Origin: a virus
DNA length: 64,000 nt
Virus record (IMG/VR): IMGVR_UViG_3300046501_000082
Location: 1 to 64,000 of that record
Reading direction: 5' to 3' (one strand)
The notes under the pieces were generated by a model. It was not told where the DNA came from and did not search any database. It worked only from the letters and a program-made list of their open reading frames with translations. Each line of letters begins with the position of its first letter. Positions within the stretch are counted from its first letter, which is position 1. The position numbers and the translations under genes are program-made. Of the stretch, positions 25,440-56,340 are shown piece by piece.

Positions 25440-26579
25440 ATGACAGATTACATCAATGTAAAAGATTATGGTGCTGTGGGTAATGGGACTACAGATGATT
25501 CAAATGCTATTCAGTCGGCTATCACAGCAGCTCCTGATGGGTCAATTGTCCTGTTTCCTGCACCAACCGTTGCATACAGAATTACTAAACAGATCCTTGT
25601 AAATAAGCGCCTCACTCTAGAAGGTGGTAAGTGTAAGATTAAAATGACAGCGGGGAATGGGTTTTCTTTATTCGCTGAAAATATTGTGATGCGAGGATTT
25701 AATTTCACAGGGAGCCGTATTAACTGGGACCACTGTGCTATTAATATCTTCATGTCTCAAGTTAAAGTTGAAGATATTGAAGTGGAGCATTGCTCTCATG
25801 CTGTACGTGTTCTGGGTGGTGTATGGCACACCTTGTCCCGTATTAGAGCTAAGAATATTGTTTATGGTGTTCTTGAGGTTGGTAACACTGTAGGTGCTGT
25901 AGTAGAAGACTTCAGGTATGATACAGATGTAGCGAACTACCCAGCACCTGTATATGGCGTCTACTACTGGGGTGAAGGTGCTAACTTCTCTGACTTAGAC
26001 TTTATTCATGCAGGTAAGGCGTTGTGGATTGAGAGTACAGCCAATCGTAGTGTTAACTGGACATTCTTTAATTCATGCTCATTTGACACATCAGACTATG
26101 GCTGTATCATTCAAGGTAATGCTGTAGGACGTACAGTGGATGGGTTGATGTTTGATCAATGCTGGTTTGCTAGTCACAAGATTGCTGGTGTGTGGATTGA
26201 GGGTGCTAAAGTTAATGGTATAACAATGGATGGTTGCCACATCATTAACAATCAGAAAGAAGGTGTTATTCTAGTCGGTGCAGCAACCAACATTGACTTT
26301 AATGGCTGTGTATTCGGTGGTAATTCTGCATTCAATCCCGGTATTCATCACAACATCTATAGTAATTCTTCTGGTCGTAAATTTATCCGCAACTGTCAAT
26401 TCTCTGATTGGGGCGGGTTTGTTACCAATGTTGGCTATGATATTCTCAGGGCTGAACAAGATGGTGATTGTGTAATAGATGGGAATATCTCTATGGGCCA
26501 GACGGGCGGGGGTTATATTAGCGGGTCATCTGTACAGGCTAAAATTGGGCGCAACTTTGGTAGCTTACCGAGTGCTTGA
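25440..26579 (+). CDS. beta-helix polysaccharide depolymerase (pectate lyase 3-like)
   Basis: INVKDYGAVGNGTTDDS.AIQ.AI motif, parallel beta-helix Asn/Gly/Cys periodicity. Confidence 0.82.
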   Translation: MTDYINVKDYGAVGNGTTDDSNAIQSAITAAPDGSIVLFPAPTVAYRITKQILVNKRLTLEGGKCKIKMTAGNGFSLFAENIVMRGFNFTGSRINWDHCAINIFMSQVKVEDIEVEHCSHAVRVLGGVWHTLSRIRAKNIVYGVLEVGNTVGAVVEDFRYDTDVANYPAPVYGVYYWGEGANFSDLDFIHAGKALWIESTANRSVNWTFFNSCSFDTSDYGCIIQGNAVGRTVDGLMFDQCWFASHKIAGVWIEGAKVNGITMDGCHIINNQKEGVILVGAATNIDFNGCVFGGNSAFNPGIHHNIYSNSSGRKFIRNCQFSDWGGFVTNVGYDILRAEQDGDCVIDGNISMGQTGGGYISGSSVQAKIGRNFGSLPSA

Positions 26580-45400: not shown

Positions 45401-45413
45401 TTAGCTTGCGGCT

Positions 45414-45442
45414 ATTGTGAAGCAATTTTATGGGGTTGTCAA
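45414..45442 (-). promoter_or_regulatory. sigma70 promoter
   Basis: TTGACA-17-CACAAT. Confidence 0.75.
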
Positions 45443-45448
45443 GGTTTA

Positions 45449-45709
45449 TTAATGGCAGTTATCCCATCCACTACCAATCACATAACCTGACGTCAATTCT
45501 ACGTTAAGTTTGTAATACTGTCCAGCTTCTTTTACAGATTCCGCTGCCAATTCCCCAGCACGGCACCATGAACGAAAGAAACGTCCGTCTTTTGCATGAC
45601 CAACATCACTCCAGATACGGCCTTCTTCACAGAAATCTTTTGCTTCTTTCTCTGTATCAAACATCTTAAACTTAACTAGGCTTCTTGTCAACTCTAATTG
45701 CGCTTCATC
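45449..45709 (-). CDS. family A DNA polymerase, exon 2 (DEAQ...WDNCH*)
   Basis: Completes HDE motif C; G..W..CH terminus typical of T7-like PolA. Confidence 0.92.
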   Translation of the reverse strand, partial: DEAQLELTRSLVKFKMFDTEKEAKDFCEEGRIWSDVGHAKDGRFFRSWCRAGELAAESVKEAGQYYKLNVELTSGYVIGSGWDNCH

Positions 45710-45946
45710 CATTCAGTTATTGAGTTCGCTAAACTCACTCCGCTTTCACGGAGAATCAGACTATATCACAAACTCTTTCGAGTTTCCTGCCGCTTCGAGT
45801 GCGCTTGCACCCTACTCCCTTCCGGGATAGTCGTTACACGTTCCTATTTCTAGGCTTCGCTCGGGATTGGCATGGCTTTCGCTTTAGCTTTCCCCGAATT
45901 CAACAGGTTATTCAATGCACTTCACAATGCAAGGCCACAATTATTT
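45710..45946 (-). mobile_element. group I intron (237 nt, no ORF) in DNA polymerase
   Basis: 5' splice after CAU with P1 CCAU/GUGG U.G pair; AACGACUAU and GAUAUAGUCU core elements; terminal G; splicing restores AYH|DEAQ. Confidence 0.93.
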
Positions 45947-48124
45947 ATGGTACGCAATCATTTGTTGGCAATACTTTTTACTTTTCCAATCGTCTTTAAA
46001 GAAATCTACCGCGAACCCTTCGGCTTTAAGCTTACGATCATGAATAACCATCGCTCGCTTTGCACAAATTACACCTGCGCTTTGAAATCCACTGTTAATC
46101 ACATTGCCTTTTGAACGAATAGGAAGTTTACGTTTATCAATACCTACAAGAAACTTCTTCTGTCCTGTTGTTTCCCAGTATTGCTGCATACGTTCTTTGA
46201 GTTCTTTGAGCGGATTAGCCAAAGTCCAGAACTCATCAAAAATAATCTGTGCCGTTTCTAGGTCACAACCAACAATTTTAGCTACCCGTGCAACTTGGGC
46301 GTTGTAACTACATCCGTACTTCACAGATTTAGCGCTATTTCGTGGGAAATCACGGCCAATAATCTCTGTAATACGGCGGGCCAATACAGAGTGACAATCA
46401 TTAGGCTTTTCAGCAGTCAGACTTACACCGTACTCCGGGCCACCTTTATAACGGTACACATAATGACTTTCAATCTTAGCCTCAAGGCTGTCAAAATCAT
46501 AACCAAGTTGTACATAGCCTTCACCAACACCAAACAAACTCCTCATTTCCTCCCCGTAAAGGGATGTATTTCGTGGAATGTTCGCCACTAAACGATGCTT
46601 GAATCTGCTGGTCCCAGCGCCGCAAGTATCTGCTGGTGTTGGAATACGTCCATCCTCACGAACGTTCGGCATAAAACCACTTTCATGCTCTTCGTCATTT
46701 TCCTCTGGATCATACCCGCCCCCCAGAATACTATTACGGCGGTGGCTGTAAGTCAAGAAGTCAGCAAGCTTTCTAGCGTGTGGAAAGCTACTTTCTAGTG
46801 CAATAAGACCGGGGCAGATCTCTTTCTCTTGTCCTACCGTCAGCGTGGGGTTGGTTAACACTTTAAAGCTTTTAGCGCACCCTTTTGCCAACAACTTAGC
46901 CTTAATGTTGTTTTTATTAAGGTTCAAGTGCTCTAGACGATATTTGCAGAAAGGACTTGCTAGTGTCTGTTCAACATATCGTTCTACTGCTGCTTCGAAC
47001 TTCTCCTGTGTCAGACGGTTCTTCTTGGCATCACAGGTAAGATCACGCTCCTTCCAAGCGGAAGGGTTCCAGTGAAACTTAGACACTAGCCATTCTTTAA
47101 TGTGGGTTGTGTCTTTCAAAGTTGATGGTACTTCAGTGAGCAATGGTACAGCAGGCATTGGTAGTGGATACTCTTTACCAAAGATTGTTGCTACGTTATC
47201 TTCACTAATTGTTCCTTCGTGTTTAGCTACAAACTTCTTAATGTTTTCATTAAGTTCGCCAGACTTCTTAAACTGTTTTTCCGAAGGTGTGTAGAAATCC
47301 ATGCGCGTCTTAGCCAATGGTTTTGGTGGCAAGACAGGTTCAACTTCACTGCGCAAGGCCTCAAGTTTGATGTCAAGATCACGAACCAGTTCAATTGCAC
47401 GTTCTGTCTTAAAGTCAAATCCTCGGTGCTCTTGGCGAGTGATAATCTCCGCAACAGACTTTTCCAGACTGATAGCGTCTAACCAATCCCAATCACCTTT
47501 CTCAGCCTCCAGCATCTTGTAAACTTTTGTGTTCGCCAAGACATCTATGATGCAATAAAATAACATGTCCGCTGCAAAATGTTTGAAACGAATAGATTCG
47601 TGAATGTGTTTACGAAAAGAATACTTGCGCAAGCCAGCTTTCTCAGACAAAGAGTCCAAGCTATGTCCGCCCAACCTATCCGGGTTAAGCGCTTTGCTTA
47701 TTACAAGTGTATCTTCAAATAGAACAGGTTTACCGCACCAAGTATCTTGTTCAACGGTGAAGTCCATATCTTCTTCAATCTTACCAACCATCAAGTCAAA
47801 ATTGATCTGGTTGTGAGCCACCACTTTATGCAGTGGGTTGTTTAGGACGTAAGCCTTAAACTCAGCAATAGATCGCTTTTCAAACTCAAGAGGTTGATAG
47901 TTTTCAAGAAGATATGTTTGCCCCTCAATTACCTCTTCGTAACGGCGACCATCAAGAATATATTCAGGACCGTCATAAAAGGCAATAATCTTACCAGTTT
48001 GATGTTCTTCCACAACAGTACAATGAGTCTTAAAAGTCTCTTTCAGCTTGAATGGGCTGCTTGTGTAATCGATAGCCTCTTGATTCAAAAGACCTGTTGT
48101 TTCCCGGTCCCAAGTAATATCCAA
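45947..48124 (-). CDS. family A DNA polymerase, exon 1 (TTG start)
   Basis: Exo motifs DRETTGL, AHN..FD, YC..DV; pol motifs DFDSLE, R..AK...YG..Y; RBS AAGGAG 7 nt before TTG 48124. Confidence 0.92.
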
Positions 48125-48128
48125 TTTC

Positions 48129-48773
48129 TTACTCCTTTGTTCTTCCAAAATACTTAATCTCGCCAGCAGCTCTGGCATCACAGGCTTCTTCGAAGGTGTC
48201 AAAATAGCCTAAGTTAATATCTTTTCTTTCAACCCCAATACGGGCACGCCACTTCTGTTGTTTTTCAACCCATGCCACACCTGTTCTGCCAGACTTGTTG
48301 TTTTTAAAGATACCTTTATTAAAGCTTTGAACTCTCCAAGTATCCCATACGCAGTTTTCTCTAGAGTAACCAAGTTTAGGATCTTCTCGTTCTAAAGTCA
48401 AACCCTCTTTATACGAGTCACCCATATCCCTCAAGAAGTTTTCAAACTGACGCCAGTCCTCTTGATCCAAACCAGCGCCCTTTCCTCCGTACTTATCCCA
48501 ATTGGGGTCGTTTGGATTGGTGCAGCGTGAAACCATTGAACCCCATACAGCATAAATCTTAGATTTCCACATGCCATGTGTTCTATAAGAGCGTTCTGCT
48601 CTAAGGCAACCACACGATTGAGAATTTCCGTCTTTAATTTGATCCGCCCTAACTACTTTTTCTTTACCACAGTCGCACAAACAATTCCAGTAGGGCCTAC
48701 CATTTTTAGATTCAGCAAAACTTATGATCGTCCATCTGTTATATTTATTACCTGTCAAGTCTTCGTGAGCCAT
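48129..48773 (-). mobile_element. free-standing HNH-AP2 homing endonuclease
   Basis: C.CDCG, SCGC, M..RC, YGGKG, TLER.D...GY..ENC.W, SGRTGV, LG.F..FEEA. Confidence 0.88.
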
Positions 48774-48782
48774 TATTAGTCC

Positions 48783-50429
48783 TTAAAAATCATCTGGAAC
48801 TTCCTGAGCAAGCAATACTGCCCAAGTGTTTTCATCAATAGTAAATTCATCAGCAACACCTAGGTAACTCCACGGGCGATTCTTCAGAACAGTGAGGCGA
48901 ACATTACCACGGCTTCGATCTGGCATAATCTGAGGCTCCAAACCAATAATGACAAAGCTCAATTGCTCCAGCGCAGAACTCCCGCGCATCATTTCCTTTG
49001 AAACTTTAACCCAAAACGGTTTGTCTTCATTTCCTTTTGGAGCTTTGAACTGTTCAGCGGCACTCCGGTTAATATGGCTAACCGCAATAACACAAACATC
49101 ATTGGCTGCACAGAATGCAGCAAGTTCAGTCATAACAATATCAAGTTCTTTACGCTCATCTGTTACATGACTTCCTGAAATAACCATACTCAAGTGGTCA
49201 ATAAGAATAAACTTACAACCTTCAACCAAGTGCATATGTTTGACTTTGTTCATAAGCTCACTTACTGGCAAACTCCCAAAGTGGCCCAACATTACCAGCA
49301 AGTCATTATCTACGATTTCATCACGAGCTTGTGTGATCTGTTCGAGTGTTGCAGATTCCAAAGGTTTGTCTTTAAACTTCAAGTAACTTACTTTCAACTT
49401 AGATGCAATCAATCGTTGCATTGTTTCTTTATTACTTTCTTCCAAGTAAATCATACCAAGCTTTTCACCAGACGCCATAAAAGAACTGGCAAAAATAGAT
49501 GTAACAGTTGATTTACCAACACCCGAGGGACTGGTGAGCAAAACTAGCTCGCGCATACGAAACCCATGAAGCTTATCCATAAGCTTAGGGAATTCATTTA
49601 CATACACACCCTCTGGCCGTGGCTCAAGCAACTCTTCAATGCTGATGTCAGATGCCTTAACAATCTTTTCAGCAGAATAAGCCCGTTTACCAAACTGAAT
49701 AAGTTTAGCCAAGTCTTCGGCCCGATTAGCTTGCAAGTAATCAGAAGCATCTTTGAAACCGTCTGCTGGCACCACTGTCATTAAAGACAAACCTGAGCCA
49801 ACCAATGCGCTAGCAACAGCTTCACGGGCTTCATGGCCCTTCATAACGCCCTTCTTTGTTTCTGCTGGTGTGCAGTAATCATCATCAAAGAAAATAGTTA
49901 GGCTGTCGTGGCTCTTTACATATTCTTCATTGTGAAGCAAAGCTTCTACAGCATTAGCAGTACCGAGAGGGATAGAAACAACGAGTGGCTCAAGCCCCTC
50001 AAACTTTGTACCTTTTACATTATCGACAGCCGCCTGCCATACACTAACACAGTCCCATTGGCCTTCTGTCGTAATAAGATTAGTCCGTTTTCGATTGGTA
50101 TTTTCTGCAACTTCTTGGCCAAACAATTTGTTGCCAATAGAGACACTGCCAACAGCAGTCCAGTGACCTTTCTCGTCTTTTCCTTTAGTCACATCTTGTT
50201 TAGTGTAGCCAACAACTTTACCTTTCTGGTTATAGGAAGGGAAATAGAAAGATTCTGGTGTCTTACCATCTTTTTCAGAGACAGCAACTTTAACACCAAA
50301 GCGTTCAAGAGTAGCTTTACGTACTCCACGGTCTGGTGCATCGAATGTTGCGTATTTATTTACTTCATCAACTGTTTCTTTTGTAAAAACTTCCACTTCT
50401 CTCTCCTTCAATTTTTTGAAATAACTCAC
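48783..50429 (-). CDS. T7 gp4-like primase-helicase lacking N-terminal zinc-binding domain
   Basis: TOPRIM TEG..D, FDDD, KDASD; Walker A SPSGVGKS, ILIDHL, KNR. Confidence 0.92.
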   Translation of the reverse strand: MSYFKKLKEREVEVFTKETVDEVNKYATFDAPDRGVRKATLERFGVKVAVSEKDGKTPESFYFPSYNQKGKVVGYTKQDVTKGKDEKGHWTAVGSVSIGNKLFGQEVAENTNRKRTNLITTEGQWDCVSVWQAAVDNVKGTKFEGLEPLVVSIPLGTANAVEALLHNEEYVKSHDSLTIFFDDDYCTPAETKKGVMKGHEAREAVASALVGSGLSLMTVVPADGFKDASDYLQANRAEDLAKLIQFGKRAYSAEKIVKASDISIEELLEPRPEGVYVNEFPKLMDKLHGFRMRELVLLTSPSGVGKSTVTSIFASSFMASGEKLGMIYLEESNKETMQRLIASKLKVSYLKFKDKPLESATLEQITQARDEIVDNDLLVMLGHFGSLPVSELMNKVKHMHLVEGCKFILIDHLSMVISGSHVTDERKELDIVMTELAAFCAANDVCVIAVSHINRSAAEQFKAPKGNEDKPFWVKVSKEMMRGSSALEQLSFVIIGLEPQIMPDRSRGNVRLTVLKNRPWSYLGVADEFTIDENTWAVLLAQEVPDDF

Positions 50430-51711: not shown

Positions 51712-52505
51712 TGTTTATTCTCCAACAGTTTCTGAGCCTTTATGGACCACTCGGAATGTTTGTGCAAAGGTTTTGATGCCGTATGAGCTTCATTGAGTAA
51801 TCCATTGGGAACGTCTTCAAGCTCCTCAATCCGAGCTTCAGCCTTCAAAGACAATTCAGCAGCTGTATGGCGGCTATAGTCTCCAAACAAGGCATGATCT
51901 TTAGGGATATTAAGCGTTGGTGTAGGGACCTTTGTGTCAATGCCGGAATAAGCTTTGAACTCATTAGAGAGCTTACTAGCTATAGACAAATCTTCAGCAT
52001 TTGCAAAATAACCATCAAGGGACCACTGGATAATTTTAATTGTTTCTTCCTTGAGAGTATAGCCAAGCCTCTTGAAATACCGAATACCCCACTTCCAAGC
52101 ATTCACTTCAGAAACCAAACGTTCTTTTGTCCACTTACCTGACCAAGTTGCATTGTAAAAACTTGACGATGAAAAATACTGATGACTTTTGCAGTGACCA
52201 AGTTCATGGCAATAGGTGAGGAAGTCGCCATCGTTTTGAGGTACAGGTGCTGCAATATAGCTGAAAAGGTCTGTGCAAGCTTCCTTGTAGCTAGTCTTTG
52301 CCTGAAAGCCAATCCCGTCTTTAAGCATACGACGTGTGACATACTCAGCAAAGCTGCGACCAGCGATCTTGTAGTCTGTGTTCAGGTTGAATTTACGTTT
52401 AGGAATCTCTGGCTTCACTTCAGGAACTGTAATACTGATAATACTTTTCAGAGCAGTGCCTTTACCAAACGTGATCGTTACGTCTTCTGGTTTGTAAGTC
52501 TTCAT
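51708..52505 (-). CDS. HExxH metallopeptidase-like protein
   Basis: CHELGH ... SEVNAW zincin pattern; RBS AAGGAG; first gene after leftward promoter. Confidence 0.65.
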   Translation of the reverse strand: MKTYKPEDVTITFGKGTALKSIISITVPEVKPEIPKRKFNLNTDYKIAGRSFAEYVTRRMLKDGIGFQAKTSYKEACTDLFSYIAAPVPQNDGDFLTYCHELGHCKSHQYFSSSSFYNATWSGKWTKERLVSEVNAWKWGIRYFKRLGYTLKEETIKIIQWSLDGYFANAEDLSIASKLSNEFKAYSGIDTKVPTPTLNIPKDHALFGDYSRHTAAELSLKAEARIEELEDVPNGLLNEAHTASKPLHKHSEWSIKAQKLLENKQ

Positions 52506-52547
52506 TTTGTGTTTCTCCTTGTCGGGGTTTGTTCTTCAATAGCCCAC

Positions 52548-52576
52548 AAGATAATCCACTATCCACCCCGAGTCAA
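52548..52576 (-). promoter_or_regulatory. leftward sigma70 promoter
   Basis: TTGACT-17-TATCTT. Confidence 0.75.
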
Positions 52577-52654
52577 GGGGTGTGCTGAAATATTTTCAGA
52601 AGACAGTCTGAAGACGTGTGGAGAATGTCCGTAGACGAACAGGCACAAAGGTTT

Positions 52655-52694
52655 GAAAATAATTGTTGACAGGGGGGTTTGGGTGAGGGATGCT
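52655..52694 (+). promoter_or_regulatory. rightward sigma70 promoter with UP element
   Basis: AAAATAATTG-TTGACA-17-GATGCT. Confidence 0.7.
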
Positions 52695-52727
52695 TGGCTA
52701 CACATTTTATTGGAAGAGGTTGCAGAG

Positions 52728-52862
52728 ATGAGAGTTTATATTCTGTGTTCGGTTGCTGGTCACTACAAAGGCGTGTTCAAGTCACGTAAAGAGGCTGAGG
52801 AGCATGCTATTAATGAAGAAATGCTTGGTTATGAAATCTTTATGGATGTATTGAACAAATGA
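52728..52862 (+). CDS. early microprotein
   Basis: RBS GAGGT; MRVYILC... Confidence 0.6.
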   Translation: MRVYILCSVAGHYKGVFKSRKEAEEHAINEEMLGYEIFMDVLNK

Positions 52863-53004
52863 ACACAACCAACGGTACAGATTGGGATAAATGTGGTAAT
52901 GCTATGAGTAATAATACTACGATACATCACCAGCAAGAGGACGCCCCTCTGTGGCTTAGCGCTGAGGATATTCGGGAAATGTTGAAGGAATTGGAGGGTG
53001 AGGA

Positions 53005-53214
53005 ATGATTGACTACAAATTGTTGTATGAAGAGAGCTTAAAAGAGAATGAAAAACTAAGGCTACTCCTAGGGCGTGCACATAAACGCATAGACTCTATG
53101 CGAACTCGATATAAAGGGACGGGCAGTGATTACCTAGACTGTGTTCTGGGCATTGGTGGGTTTGAGCAATATGGTCCGATTAAAGGTGTTAAGGGGTTGA
53201 CAGACGATGAATAA
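53005..53214 (+). CDS. early hypothetical protein
   Basis: RBS, coupling. Confidence 0.6.
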   Translation: MIDYKLLYEESLKENEKLRLLLGRAHKRIDSMRTRYKGTGSDYLDCVLGIGGFEQYGPIKGVKGLTDDE

Positions 53215-53486
53215 TTCTTATGATTTCATACCAGACACGTCCACCTGTTATCAGATAGACGACACAAGATTCTTTGAAATTCAAGCTGACAAAGAGTCTG
53301 TTGAGCGCTTTATTAAAGACTTAGAATTGTTTGAGAAGAAGAGTGCTGAAGAGGGGGAATGATTGTATGAATTCTGCTCACGTTCACTGCTACTCCTGTG
53401 AAAACATATCATGTTCAAAAGCTTGCTTTAGGCTGTGTGTTCGTGAGATGATGTGCCATTGAAATTAATTGATTGGAGAGAAAGGT

Positions 53487-53696
53487 ATGGCCAGGTTTAA
53501 AGCAAAGAAGCTAATCTGGATGCTTGAAGATATTCTTGACAAAGAACAAGAACTTCAGGCGGGTATTAATGCTTGGAATGATGAGAATGAAGATCCTAGC
53601 AACCAAGCGGGTTGTGATCCATCCGACCAATATCTTTTAGGTGAAGAGGTTGAAGGTTTGTGGGAAGAATTTAAGAAAGAGGTGAATGAAGCATGA
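53487..53696 (+). CDS. early acidic hypothetical protein
   Basis: RBS; MARFKAKK. Confidence 0.6.
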   Translation: MARFKAKKLIWMLEDILDKEQELQAGINAWNDENEDPSNQAGCDPSDQYLLGEEVEGLWEEFKKEVNEA

Positions 53697-53893
53697 AACA
53701 TATACAATCAGGCGAAGTGCGGGCTATGTATGATAGCGGTCAATTCTCTATGCAAGAGGCGAAGTACACTCTCAAGAAAGAATATGCTAATGATGCTCTG
53801 TTTGACGCCATCAATAAATGGAATGGTGGACTTCCTCAAGAGGCTTTCATGGAGCTTATCGAAGTGGTTAGCTATTTGGTAAATAAGGAATGA
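53693..53893 (+). CDS. early hypothetical protein
   Basis: ATGA coupling. Confidence 0.6.
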   Translation: MKHIQSGEVRAMYDSGQFSMQEAKYTLKKEYANDALFDAINKWNGGLPQEAFMELIEVVSYLVNKE

Positions 53894-54008
53894 CTGTGAT
53901 CCAGTGTGAAAAAGTGGCTTTAGGGAATGCCCTACAGGCCACGTATTCATTGACTTTGTTATCATTTTTGTACCCATATGAACAGAAGAGGAAGAAGGAG
54001 TTGGAATA

Positions 54009-55292
54009 GTGATAGAAGATGTAGAAGAGTACAGCCTTAAGAGTAGATTGTTAACCTACAATATTAATATCTCTACATCTGTAAGGAATAAGATTAGATA
54101 CATAAATAAGATAGAAGATAAAGAGTTATCTGCTGTTATCATAGTTAATCTCATATCTTGTGTTAAGAGACAGGAGAAGCTTCTGTACTCACGACATAAG
54201 GGTAATCACAGTACGTCTGTAACTAAGTACAACAGACGTGGTATACAAACACACAGACTGTTGAAATGCATTGACACCCTTGAAGCTTTAGGCTATATTG
54301 AGAACTTCGTGGGTAAAGGTCATATAGATAAGGAAAAGAGAATTATGTCTTACATCACACCTTCTGAAGCCTTTATTGCTGAGTTCTGTTCTAAAGATGA
54401 GGAAGTACAGAGCGCTATTGCTGCTTATAATGCCAGCCTTCAGACTATTATCTTGCGTAATGAATATGGTAAGGCTATTGACTATCAAGATAATAAGAAT
54501 ATTAAAGCTGCACGTAAGGTTGTAGAGAAACTAAATCGTATTAATGAGTTGCATGATATTAAAGATGGTGAAGGGAATGTCATGACTAACATCTATTCTC
54601 GTATTTTTAATAAAGATTTTGAGCATGGTGGTCGCTACTTTCATTCGGATGCTTTGAAGATTAAACACAAGAAGACTAAGGCCCGTCTGGATATCACTAT
54701 CAATGGTGAGCAGGTTGTAGAAATTGATTTTTCTAACCTTCACTACAGGCTTGCCAGTTTGATGGAACAGATAAGTATGGAGAACCTTCCACTTGATGTG
54801 TATATGGATATTCTGCCCGAGTGTTTGCAGAATGATGATCACCGTGAATTGATTAAACTTTCTATTAACATTCTGTTCAACTCTAAGACTGAAGATAGTG
54901 CTGATCGTGCAATAAACAAAGAGATTACAAAGTTTAAATCTCAAGGTTGGAATATTGATAAGAGTCTAAATACTGGTAAAAAGGTACGAGAACACATTTA
55001 CATCATGACACCAGATTTTATTCCTTGTTATTGCCGGGATGATTCGTTCGGTCTTGCATTGCAGAACGCAGATTCATACCTTGCACAGCGAGTAATTGAG
55101 AAATTTGTTGACGAAATGAAGCCAATCTTGCCTATTCATGACAGTTTCGTGGTCAGGATGTCTGACGTGGGGCTTTTGGAGAATGCAATGGGAGACGCTT
55201 TTCGAGAAGAATTTGGAATTGCTTCGCTAATTCCCTTGAAAATGTCTTGGAAAGATGCTAATGTGCTTCAAGAAAGTAAAATCTTAGCGTAA
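54009..55292 (+). CDS. stand-alone PolA / single-subunit RNA polymerase-fold protein
   Basis: D..HGGRYF, motif A VEIDFSNLH, motif B R..IK....ILFN, motif C ILPIHDSF; no exonuclease domain; RBS AAGGAG. Confidence 0.78.
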   Translation: MIEDVEEYSLKSRLLTYNINISTSVRNKIRYINKIEDKELSAVIIVNLISCVKRQEKLLYSRHKGNHSTSVTKYNRRGIQTHRLLKCIDTLEALGYIENFVGKGHIDKEKRIMSYITPSEAFIAEFCSKDEEVQSAIAAYNASLQTIILRNEYGKAIDYQDNKNIKAARKVVEKLNRINELHDIKDGEGNVMTNIYSRIFNKDFEHGGRYFHSDALKIKHKKTKARLDITINGEQVVEIDFSNLHYRLASLMEQISMENLPLDVYMDILPECLQNDDHRELIKLSINILFNSKTEDSADRAINKEITKFKSQGWNIDKSLNTGKKVREHIYIMTPDFIPCYCRDDSFGLALQNADSYLAQRVIEKFVDEMKPILPIHDSFVVRMSDVGLLENAMGDAFREEFGIASLIPLKMSWKDANVLQESKILA

Positions 55293-55305
55293 TAGGAGTA
55301 TTAAA

Positions 55306-55716
55306 ATGATTAACGAATTCGGACACACAAATGATGTGAAATACTTGGAAACAGCTAACGCTTTCATTCAAGCCGCTATTGCTGATGGATGGGAGCATTC
55401 TCAAACATACCCATCAGAATCTATTGAGCGTGCATGTCGTCTCACTAAAAATGGTTTTGTCATTAGTGCAATCACTCGTAAAGATGTTGGTAAGTGGAAG
55501 TATGAAGTTCAGTTGAGCGCTTGGGCACCAGACAAACTTTGTATTGATTTGCCTAAAGTATATAATCCTGATACATTCTTGAAAGCAGAAATCACTTGTG
55601 GGATTTGCAAGAAAGAAGTAGACAAAACATATCGGTATAGTTTTGCAGGCAGAGCTTGTGCAGATTGTATCCCAAAGGCTCGTAAAGAGCACGAACAAAC
55701 GGGATGGTGTGATTAA
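55306..55716 (+). CDS. hypothetical protein with C-terminal Zn finger
   Basis: CGIC...CADC. Confidence 0.72.
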   Translation: MINEFGHTNDVKYLETANAFIQAAIADGWEHSQTYPSESIERACRLTKNGFVISAITRKDVGKWKYEVQLSAWAPDKLCIDLPKVYNPDTFLKAEITCGICKKEVDKTYRYSFAGRACADCIPKARKEHEQTGWCD

Positions 55717-55717
55717 C

Positions 55718-55993
55718 ATGACCTACCAAAAACAATACACCTCATTCCTGTCCACTCTGCACCAAGACACACGCCCGTGGATAACTAACCGTGACATCCC
55801 TAAAGATGGATCACAGATTTATCTTATGTGTGGCCTTGACTGGCAAGGAAATGTACAATATGATGTGGGGAGGTATGAGGATTACACAAAGCATTGGTGG
55901 TATTTGAGTAGCCAAATTCCGGGGGAATTGAACACTGAATTTGGCAATTGTGATGAAATTATTGGTTGGAAATTTATGGAGGATAAAGAATGA
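55718..55993 (+). CDS. hypothetical protein (DUF551-like pattern)
   Basis: WI...IPKDG...GW motif. Confidence 0.55.
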   Translation: MTYQKQYTSFLSTLHQDTRPWITNRDIPKDGSQIYLMCGLDWQGNVQYDVGRYEDYTKHWWYLSSQIPGELNTEFGNCDEIIGWKFMEDKE

Positions 55994-56340
55994 AAAACTT
56001 TAAACATGAAGACCGCTACATGGTTGTAAAACTAAGCTTGCTTAGTGATGAATTTAATGAAGATGGAATGCAACGATCTGATGTTATTTACCGTAACGCT
56101 CACTTCGGTAAAGCAATGGTTGAGTGTGTAGTTGTTGAGTCAGACTGGCCTGAATACGATAAAGTTTGGAAGATGATTGAGCAGCGTGTCACAGGCACAA
56201 CACCAAATGTTGATCAAGTGGCTTTAGATTGTATGCAACGGATTATGAGCATTCTTGATGCCGACTGGAAGAGGGGGGAAGTTCAGTTGAAAGCCCAGAT
56301 TCAATGTGCGATTATTGATGCTTTGGAGATTGTTAAATGA
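55990..56340 (+). CDS. hypothetical phage protein
   Basis: F..E.RY.V.K and CVVVESDWPEY..VW.MI motifs. Confidence 0.7.
   Translation: MKNFKHEDRYMVVKLSLLSDEFNEDGMQRSDVIYRNAHFGKAMVECVVVESDWPEYDKVWKMIEQRVTGTTPNVDQVALDCMQRIMSILDADWKRGEVQLKAQIQCAIIDALEIVK

Follow-up and report, generated by a model that had tools for sequence, protein, structure and literature searches.

A phage divPolA2-family polymerase with a predicted winged-helix domain and a conserved upstream motif: a candidate enzyme for site-targeted initiation

We analyzed a 64,000-nt stretch of viral DNA (hereafter, the window), which is the first 64 kb of IMG/VR record IMGVR_UViG_3300046501_000082. The full virus record is 92,874 bp long and has terminal repeats; coordinates below are positions in the window unless marked "genome", which refers to the full record. 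By its sequence, the gene at 54009-55292 is a new member of divPolA2, a family described computationally in 2024. New here are a likely winged-helix fold of the N-terminal domain, a conserved motif and a box upstream of the gene, and the placement of most copies of the gene at or near minus-to-plus strand switches. Our best guess for its function, a tentative one based on analogy, is site-targeted priming or initiation. The gene and the parts of its product are as follows.

54009-55292 (+): divPolA2-family gene, stop codon included; GTG start, 427 aa, from the list of open reading frames (ORFs) and the translation
54081-54413 (+): predicted winged-helix domain at the N-terminus, spanning residues ~25-135 and carrying an inserted loop at ~61-80; from VIA, Foldseek and weak profile matches
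54426-55289 (+): compact core of family-A polymerase/T7 RNA polymerase (RNAP) type (about residues 140-427), comprising two helices, an Arg beta-hairpin, palm and helical fingers; from the structural model, VIA and Foldseek
54633-54635 (+): codon of R209 in the GGR of the beta-hairpin
54726-54743 (+): motif A, D240-F-S-N-L-H245, with the catalytic Asp D240
54843-54857 (+): core of motif B, R279-x3-K283, in the O-helix of the fingers
55137-55145 (+): motif C, H377-D378-S379, with the second catalytic Asp; the "HDS" form of T7 RNAP

A first-pass annotation made from the letters of the window had described an orphan early-region protein of 427 aa, roughly half as large as T7 RNAP and free of an exonuclease domain. 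The ORF (with a GTG start) and its size were borne out by the ORF list and translation, and no exonuclease domain was matched in Pfam, PHROGs or fold searches. The protein is not an orphan, however: it has a paralog in the same genome, its family has a published name, and an exhaustive HMMER search returned, at 50% identity, 3,166 clusters with E ≤ 1e-3 and 790 with E ≤ 1e-10, most being 400-550 aa long. Statements on conservation are drawn from an alignment of 34 homologs reaching down to 22% identity (A1). The profile of A1 matched MG592441.1 at 25484-26509 (-) with E 2.5e-30; this is the coding sequence AUR84708.1, prototype of divPolA2, from Vibrio phage 1.063.O. The family was named by Yutin, Tolstoy, Mutz, Wolf, Krupovic and Koonin (2024, Virol J 21:200; PMC11348598), who described it as an extra PolA without an exonuclease or a homologous thumb and with an N-terminal domain unlike known domains. 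They reported two or three paralogs per genome with variable neighbours and suggested, on computational grounds, that the enzyme is either an RNA polymerase or a DNA polymerase for repair. The statement of the first-pass annotation that no activity had been demonstrated agrees with the literature searched, in which the name divPolA2 was found in no second paper.

Phages of Vibrio, Aeromonas and Pseudoalteromonas with sizes of 110-145 kb contain relatives, frequently at two or three sites in one genome; others were found on metagenomic phage contigs of ~83-94 kb. Copy number among related phages was 1 to 3. No fused forms of at least 749 aa were found, which is weak evidence. In PHROGs, the 427-aa protein matched phrog_4756 ("unknown function") at E 3e-56, and residues 354-398, over motif C, gave a weak match to phrog_414 ("RNA polymerase"). 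Pfam returned no family for it at E ≤ 10, hence neither PF00940 (RNA_pol) nor PF00476 (DNA_pol_A); Pfam and NCBIfam together gave no family for either divPolA2 paralog of this genome or for the genes downstream of them. A sub-threshold Pfam RNA_pol match (E 0.19) was seen in one distant relative, P0174. Sequence searches of the PDB gave weak winged-helix matches only, and megablast against phage records gave no match. One member lies in a bacterial genome, that of Limimaricola hongkongensis DSM 17492 (NZ_KK088654.1, locus L074), and is 39% identical to P0092; it adjoins phage portal, capsid and tail-chaperone genes, in a prophage or a region resembling a gene transfer agent. Another locus (L039; IMG/VR 3300008267_000017) carries two divPolA2 genes within 9 kb.

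The polymerase motifs quoted in the first-pass annotation were all present: HGGRYF at residues 206-211, EIDFSNLH at 238-245, R279-x3-K283 followed by ILFN, and IHDSF at 376-380. Invariant throughout A1 are G208, R209, R226, D240, Y265, R279, K283, S356, H377 and D378, and at least 90% of the sequences keep H245, D263, N291 and S379. Both catalytic Asp residues, D240 and D378, are thus invariant, and a palm fold is present in the model. From its sequence, the active site of the protein apparently is catalytically intact, and activity is predicted. We take R209 to be the counterpart of Klenow R668 and T7 RNAP R425, the local hhalign pairing with the Klenow TGR being not significant alone. R226 presumably corresponds to Klenow R682; the spacing from the Arg hairpin through R226 to motif A is the same as in Klenow. 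We further assume that His245 takes the place of Glu710, the steric gate of Klenow (from a non-significant local hhalign match with DYSQIE and from knowledge of PolA motifs), and that N287 and N291 take those of F762 and Y766, by motif spacing. The mapping of steric-gate and O-helix residues thus uses motif spacing, motif knowledge and a non-significant local alignment. Because the E710/F762/Y766 positions are His/Asn/Asn, the choice between deoxynucleotides (dNTPs) and ribonucleotides (NTPs) is not readable from the sequence.

An AlphaFold2 model built on A1 had a predicted local distance difference test (pLDDT) value of 90.6 and a predicted template modeling score of 0.84. When the core (about residues 140-425) was compared with known structures by VIA, a search independent of Foldseek, the Z values were 15.1 for apicoplast PolA (243 residues, root-mean-square deviation 4.1), 14.2 for Pol nu and 13.7 for Klenow; yeast mitochondrial RNAP (mtRNAP) gave 13.4 and T7 RNAP 12.0. 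Since the scores to PolA and to mtRNAP/T7 RNAP are close, the fold does not separate DNA from RNA polymerases. Foldseek against the PDB placed family-A DNA polymerases alone at the top, and Pol nu and Pol theta were among the top structural matches. The model, Foldseek and VIA uphold the earlier structural reading of a minimal enzyme of PolA/T7 RNAP fold that is extra to a full replicative PolA. In hhalign, A1 matched neither the PolA of the same phage (probability 0.13) nor a three-sequence PolA alignment (0.27) significantly. Helices 130-143 and 163-181 are the only two that precede the Arg hairpin in the model. No full thumb is recognizable, and the thumb may be reduced or absent.

The N-terminal domain was also compact when residues 25-135 were folded alone (pLDDT 80.5). 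In VIA, nearly all of its top 50 matches were winged helices (MarR, PadR, HxlR, kleisin, the N-domain of MotA) with Z 5.7-7.3. Foldseek gave weak agreement (E 0.02, with probabilities up to 0.99), and weak profile matches of the N-terminal region were to the C-terminal winged helix of RPA32 and to PadR. The domain therefore likely belongs to the winged-helix fold class, at middling Z values. The protein resembles the divPolA2 prototype in size, in its PolA-like palm and fingers, in motifs A-C, in the lack of an exonuclease and in having a globular N-terminal domain. As elsewhere in the family, it occurs beside a regular DNA polymerase and with paralogs (two or three per genome) and variable neighbours, and it scores similarly to PolA and mtRNAP. 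The published description differs in that the N-domain is without known likeness there and no cis element is reported, whereas a winged helix is predicted here and a motif accompanies the gene in one large family branch. The phage analyzed here has PolA, while barbaviruses have PolB (PMC11348598).

The genome encodes a regular set of replication genes. A complete PolA elsewhere in the window, reported in the first-pass annotation, was confirmed at 45941-48202 (-), and a T7-type primase-helicase lies at 48783-50429 (-); ribonucleotide reductase, thymidylate synthase and nucleases are also encoded. The PolA gene extends over 45401-48202 (-) and is split by a group I intron at 45737-45957 (-) (Rfam RF00028, 79 bits, E 4e-20); ORF callers report two genes. 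Exon 1 ends in ...AYH and exon 2 starts with DEAQ..., which places the intron within the catalytic HDE motif. Since the regular replication genes are present, divPolA2 is an accessory enzyme.

A second divPolA2 paralog lies outside the window at genome 83124-84470 (+). It has 448 aa and is 23% identical to the first over the full length; its GGR, motif A Asp, RxxxK and HDS are intact. The cumulative GC skew has its global minimum (82,916) at a strand switch, and this paralog is the first gene to follow. Its upstream region contains TTGACA-17-TAGTCT, an 8-bp hairpin (AGCCTTAT/ATAAGGCT) and the motif GGCTTACAG. Both copies are situated at, or no more than ~1.5 kb downstream of, a minus-to-plus strand switch of the genome, and the GC skew turns from negative to positive at ~51-54 kb, near the first copy. 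Among 25 loci compared, the gene occupied two syntenic positions and was mostly the first or near-first gene of a plus block following a minus block. The neighbourhood was of early type and variable, with no neighbour gene conserved across the 25 loci. At the second site of close relatives (L005/L012 and L007/L009; IMG/VR 3300042147_000025 and 3300023171_000010), the paralog is 42-44% identical to the window protein and not of the 23% type; alleles at this site have therefore been exchanged between branches of the family. A mobile or homing element was considered and rejected, as related phages have the two sites in syntenic positions and the gene comes with neither an integrase nor an endonuclease.

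The first-pass annotation had called the region upstream of the gene origin-like, on account of a bulged hairpin and a purine-skewed run of repeats. The following features were located there.

53914-53942 (+): bulged hairpin GTGGCTTTAGGG-AATG-CCCTACAGGCCAC; -21.3 kcal/mol, z -5.2
53916-53923 (+): partial second box GGCTTTAG, matching the first 8 of 9 motif positions with one mismatch and inverted relative to the first box; read from the sequence
53932-53940 (-): 9-nt motif GGCCTGTAG, an instance of GGCYTRYAG, situated in the right hairpin arm, 77 nt upstream of the GTG
53950-53955 (+): TTGACT, resembling a -35 element; kept in four of five orthologs (TTGACC in L007), with no good -10 at 16-18 nt, and not called by the promoter scan
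53976-53991 (+): invariant block ATATGAACAGAAGAGG, a YATATRR box plus purine-rich leader, unchanged in six orthologs
53996-54000 (+): Shine-Dalgarno sequence AGGAG, 8 nt before the GTG; read from the sequence

The 9-nt motif GGCYTRYAG, counted on either strand, had 33 matches in 228 kb of related loci, and 21 of them lay at -46 to -84 of a divPolA2 start, in 16 of the 25 loci. The chance expectation for these 21 was ~0.26; 200 permuted motifs averaged 0.3 matches within 170 nt upstream and had 14 at most. Both copies in the genome carry the motif (53932-53940, and genome 83073-83081). It was also found at -57 of the gene in Vibrio phage HNL01, and a form one base shorter (GGCTGTAG) lies upstream in Vibrio phage 1.121.O; the prototype in 1.063.O, which is more distant, is not preceded by it. 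In the genomes scanned, the motif was not over-represented elsewhere, unlike a promoter spread over a genome.

The motif is part of a paired arrangement. CTACAGGCC, complementary to GGCCTGTAG, lies in the right hairpin arm, and paired inverted boxes 20 nt apart were present in L012, L013, L026, L017 and L016. Pairing of box 1 with box 2 was found in 80.6% of cells, vs. 25-45% for slid controls. The two boxes showed no covariation beyond that of column shuffles, and RNAalifold on 12 upstream elements gave no consensus structure. These data fit a conserved imperfect inverted repeat, a candidate for a protein-binding DNA site or a sequence-constrained stem-loop. A T-rich run follows the second box in many loci, and in loci of type B a sigma70-like TTGACA-17-xAxTAT lies ~150 nt upstream. 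The element would therefore stand in a transcribed leader, where a role as attenuator is possible.

The individual claims about an origin-like region fared unevenly. The hairpin exists in the window and is strong (none of 200 shuffles was as stable), but it is not kept in orthologs. In five orthologous loci with 89-93% protein identity, the same 46-nt window gave z values of only -0.2 to -1.5, and other hairpins form nearby in several loci. The purine skew is likewise real: positions 53980-54129 are 67% purine, and only one distinct 150-nt window of the genome is richer in purines than the overlapping 53976-54125 (68%). The AGAAGA/GATA-type repeats ascribed to it were not found. The run is explained by the Shine-Dalgarno region together with codons of an acidic/basic N-terminus, i.e., an ordinary ribosome-binding site plus coding sequence. 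Strong purine-rich Shine-Dalgarno sequences precede the starts of homologs too, and the 5′ end of the second paralog is also among the most purine-rich windows. The early promoters had been taken as sigma70-type; sigma70-like matches in 52400-56000 were in fact no commoner than in shuffles (8 vs. 10.1 expected). Conserved upstream elements, whose absence the annotation would have taken as a refutation, do accompany homologs, in the shape of GGCYTRYAG and of the YATATRR box, which was found at -50 to -6 in 20 of the 25 loci vs. 1.2% of control windows; the hairpin as such does not. The block ATATGAACAGAAGAGG occurs once in the genome. What stands of the origin-like region is thus the conserved motif and the YATATRR box, without the repeats, the special purine run or the exact hairpin.

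Rfam gave nothing credible for 52400-55400, and a tRNA search found none. A 20-codon, Arg-rich upstream ORF at 53978-54040 (+), with its ATG at 53978, lies in another frame and overlaps the Shine-Dalgarno sequence and the polymerase start; the purine-rich leader probably gives rise to it incidentally. Outside the window, the largest and most AT-rich intergenic spacer (genome 68806-69340; 535 nt, 34% GC) is situated at a convergent junction. It contains look-alikes of the upstream elements, of copy 1 at 69264-69295 (+) and of copy 2 at 69063-69090 (-). A 435-aa gene beside this spacer matched no helicase or other named family.

In the reading that we tentatively prefer, the winged helix would anchor the enzyme at motif sites on the DNA, and the minimal polymerase core would then make or extend a short primer, so that DNA synthesis starts at the motif site. 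The regular replisome would take over afterwards, and the same site could let the protein regulate its own gene. We counted in favor of site-targeted initiation the fold and active site, the family membership, the two intact paralogs, the presence of regular replication genes, the winged helix, the strand-switch placement with the nearby turns of GC skew, a motif that is gene-specific and not promoter-like in its spread, and a precedent among primase-polymerases. Priming at origins by T7 RNAP is a second analogy for such an initiator. A more specific form of the proposal is that divPolA2 and its cognate inverted-repeat motif make up a self-contained site-specific initiation module, in which the winged helix would recognize its own site and two modules would provide two start sites; we regard this as possible but doubtful.

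The precedent is CCPol-MP. CCPol of SCCmec belongs to the TV-Pol family (Iyer, Abhiman and Aravind 2008; PMC2579912) and has been demonstrated to be a primase-polymerase when joined by MP, a small protein; it is the only biochemically characterized minimal PolA of such kind (Bebel et al. 2020; PMC7581432). The site-targeted enzyme proposed here would be analogous to it. The window protein shares with TV-Pol a beta-hairpin that bears a conserved Arg (strands 197-201 and 207-211; G208-R209 invariant), the palm Asp pair D240/D378, a fingers Asp (D263, at least 90%) with RxxxK (R279, K283), the lack of a nuclease and the occurrence besides regular replication enzymes. TV-Pol has a bi-helical coiled-coil thumb; here, two helices lie ahead of the hairpin, and the family is without a homologous thumb according to PMC11348598. 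Unlike TV-Pol, divPolA2 showed no linkage to a D5-type helicase, integrase, resolvase or transposase in the 25 loci. The A1 profile matched nothing in Microcystis phage Ma-LMM01, a reported carrier of a TV-Pol element and the only TV-Pol sequence tried. CCPol-MP differs also in its partner: no small MP-like gene of OB fold, nor one resembling an SSB (a protein that binds single-stranded DNA), adjoins the gene here, and the downstream genes differ between loci.

Several points weigh against site-targeted initiation. The phage already encodes a primase-helicase. No conserved partner gene, whether helicase, SSB/MP-like or other, adjoins divPolA2 in the 25 loci. CCPol keeps the equivalents of E710 and F762, whereas the divPolA2 family has His and Asn there, and Asn at the position of Y766. 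Winged-helix folds can bind proteins instead of DNA. In loci of type B the motif may be just an attenuator or an autoregulatory operator, as it often lies in a stem-loop followed by T-rich sequence. Tandem Repeats Finder returned no rows at score ≥ 30 upstream of the gene, and no iterons were seen. The GC skew is not independent evidence of an origin because its minima coincide with transcription switches. The element copies in the large spacer are marginal, with a blastn E of 0.096 for one and no match for the other.

The strongest alternative, which we nevertheless consider unlikely, is a small single-subunit RNA polymerase, in which the winged helix replaces the N-domain and specificity loop of T7-type enzymes in promoter choice and a few genes or a specific RNA are transcribed. 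Like T7 RNAP, N4 RNAPII and mtRNAP, the window protein has the HDSF form of motif C, the Arg of T/DxxGR and the RxxxK of the O-helix, and the fold gives Z 7.5-13.4 to this group, with the yeast mtRNAP and T7 RNAP values near those of PolA. From motif knowledge, it has neither the Glu steric gate of DNA polymerases nor their O-helix Phe/Tyr. The gene stands early in its operon, as T7 gene 1 does. An Atlas neighbour cluster bears the automatic name "DNA-directed RNA polymerase family protein", and Yutin et al. raised this option too (PMC11348598). The protein is, however, about half the size of T7-like RNAPs, without their N-terminal domain and specificity loop and apparently without their thumb. 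By motif spacing, the T7-family Gly at D+5 of motif A (G542) and Tyr639 of motif B are missing, with His245 and Asn291 in their places, and there is no match to PF00940. A promoter set was not apparent: no 12-14-mers are repeated besides the terminal repeat, the best intergenic word occurs in at most 12 regions vs. 9-10 in shuffles, and the upstream motif is not over-represented genome-wide. A core of ~290 aa without RNA-exit elements, and apparently without a thumb, is also unlikely to be processive over operons of 10-25 kb.

That the enzyme is an accessory DNA polymerase similar to Pol theta or Pol nu, serving in repair, gap filling or end joining, appears rather improbable. Here the winged helix would recruit the enzyme to proteins, and the motif would be an attenuator or operator, which the leader stem-loop with its T-rich tract resembles. 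The closest structures are indeed those of the DNA polymerase I group (Klenow, T7 gp5; Z up to 15.1), with Pol nu and Pol theta near the top, and motif A, DFSNLHYR, resembles DYSQIELR. A repair role was suggested by Yutin et al. (PMC11348598), and a variable neighbourhood of early-type genes would suit it. Unlike in DNA polymerase I, an exonuclease is lacking, Glu710, Phe762, Tyr766 and Glu883 are replaced, and Pfam gives no DNA_pol_A match; the sequences at the family-A signature sites are DFSNLH, RxxxKxxxNxxxN and HDS (not HDE). Among those replaced are the residues of motif B by which repair PolAs position the dNTP. Two diverged paralogs at two syntenic sites with the same kind of cis motif exceed the needs of generic repair, and nucleases and ligases are not linked in the neighbourhood.

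A polymerase that makes a non-genomic product (a nucleic acid serving as decoy or signal, or tails added without a template) for host takeover or anti-defence is still less probable: the hypervariable early region of small unknown genes, the unusual motif-B residues and the copy number of 1 to 3 would suit it, but the gene is linked to none for defence or counter-defence, such a role leaves the conserved cis motif unexplained, and the idea comes purely from location.

Site-targeted initiation, if true, would make divPolA2 a new kind of replication initiator-primase; in the RNA polymerase case, it would be the smallest promoter-specific enzyme of that kind. The family is very large (more than 3,000 clusters at 50% identity, in phages and prophages) and is near the minimal functional core of the PolA/T7 RNAP superfamily. 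If it starts transcription or primes DNA synthesis at a defined site, it would be a new type of initiator and, being compact, also of practical interest as an enzyme. The motif and the winged helix make a site-specific function directly testable, and Vibrio phages HNL01 and 1.121.O are cultivable relatives.

The genes that follow the two paralogs encode proteins of 136 and 140 aa, which are mutually unrelated and have no family match. The 136-aa gene lies at 55306-55716 (+), directly after the first paralog, and is not conserved beside homologs; the C-terminal CxxC...CxxC of its product suggests a zinc ribbon.

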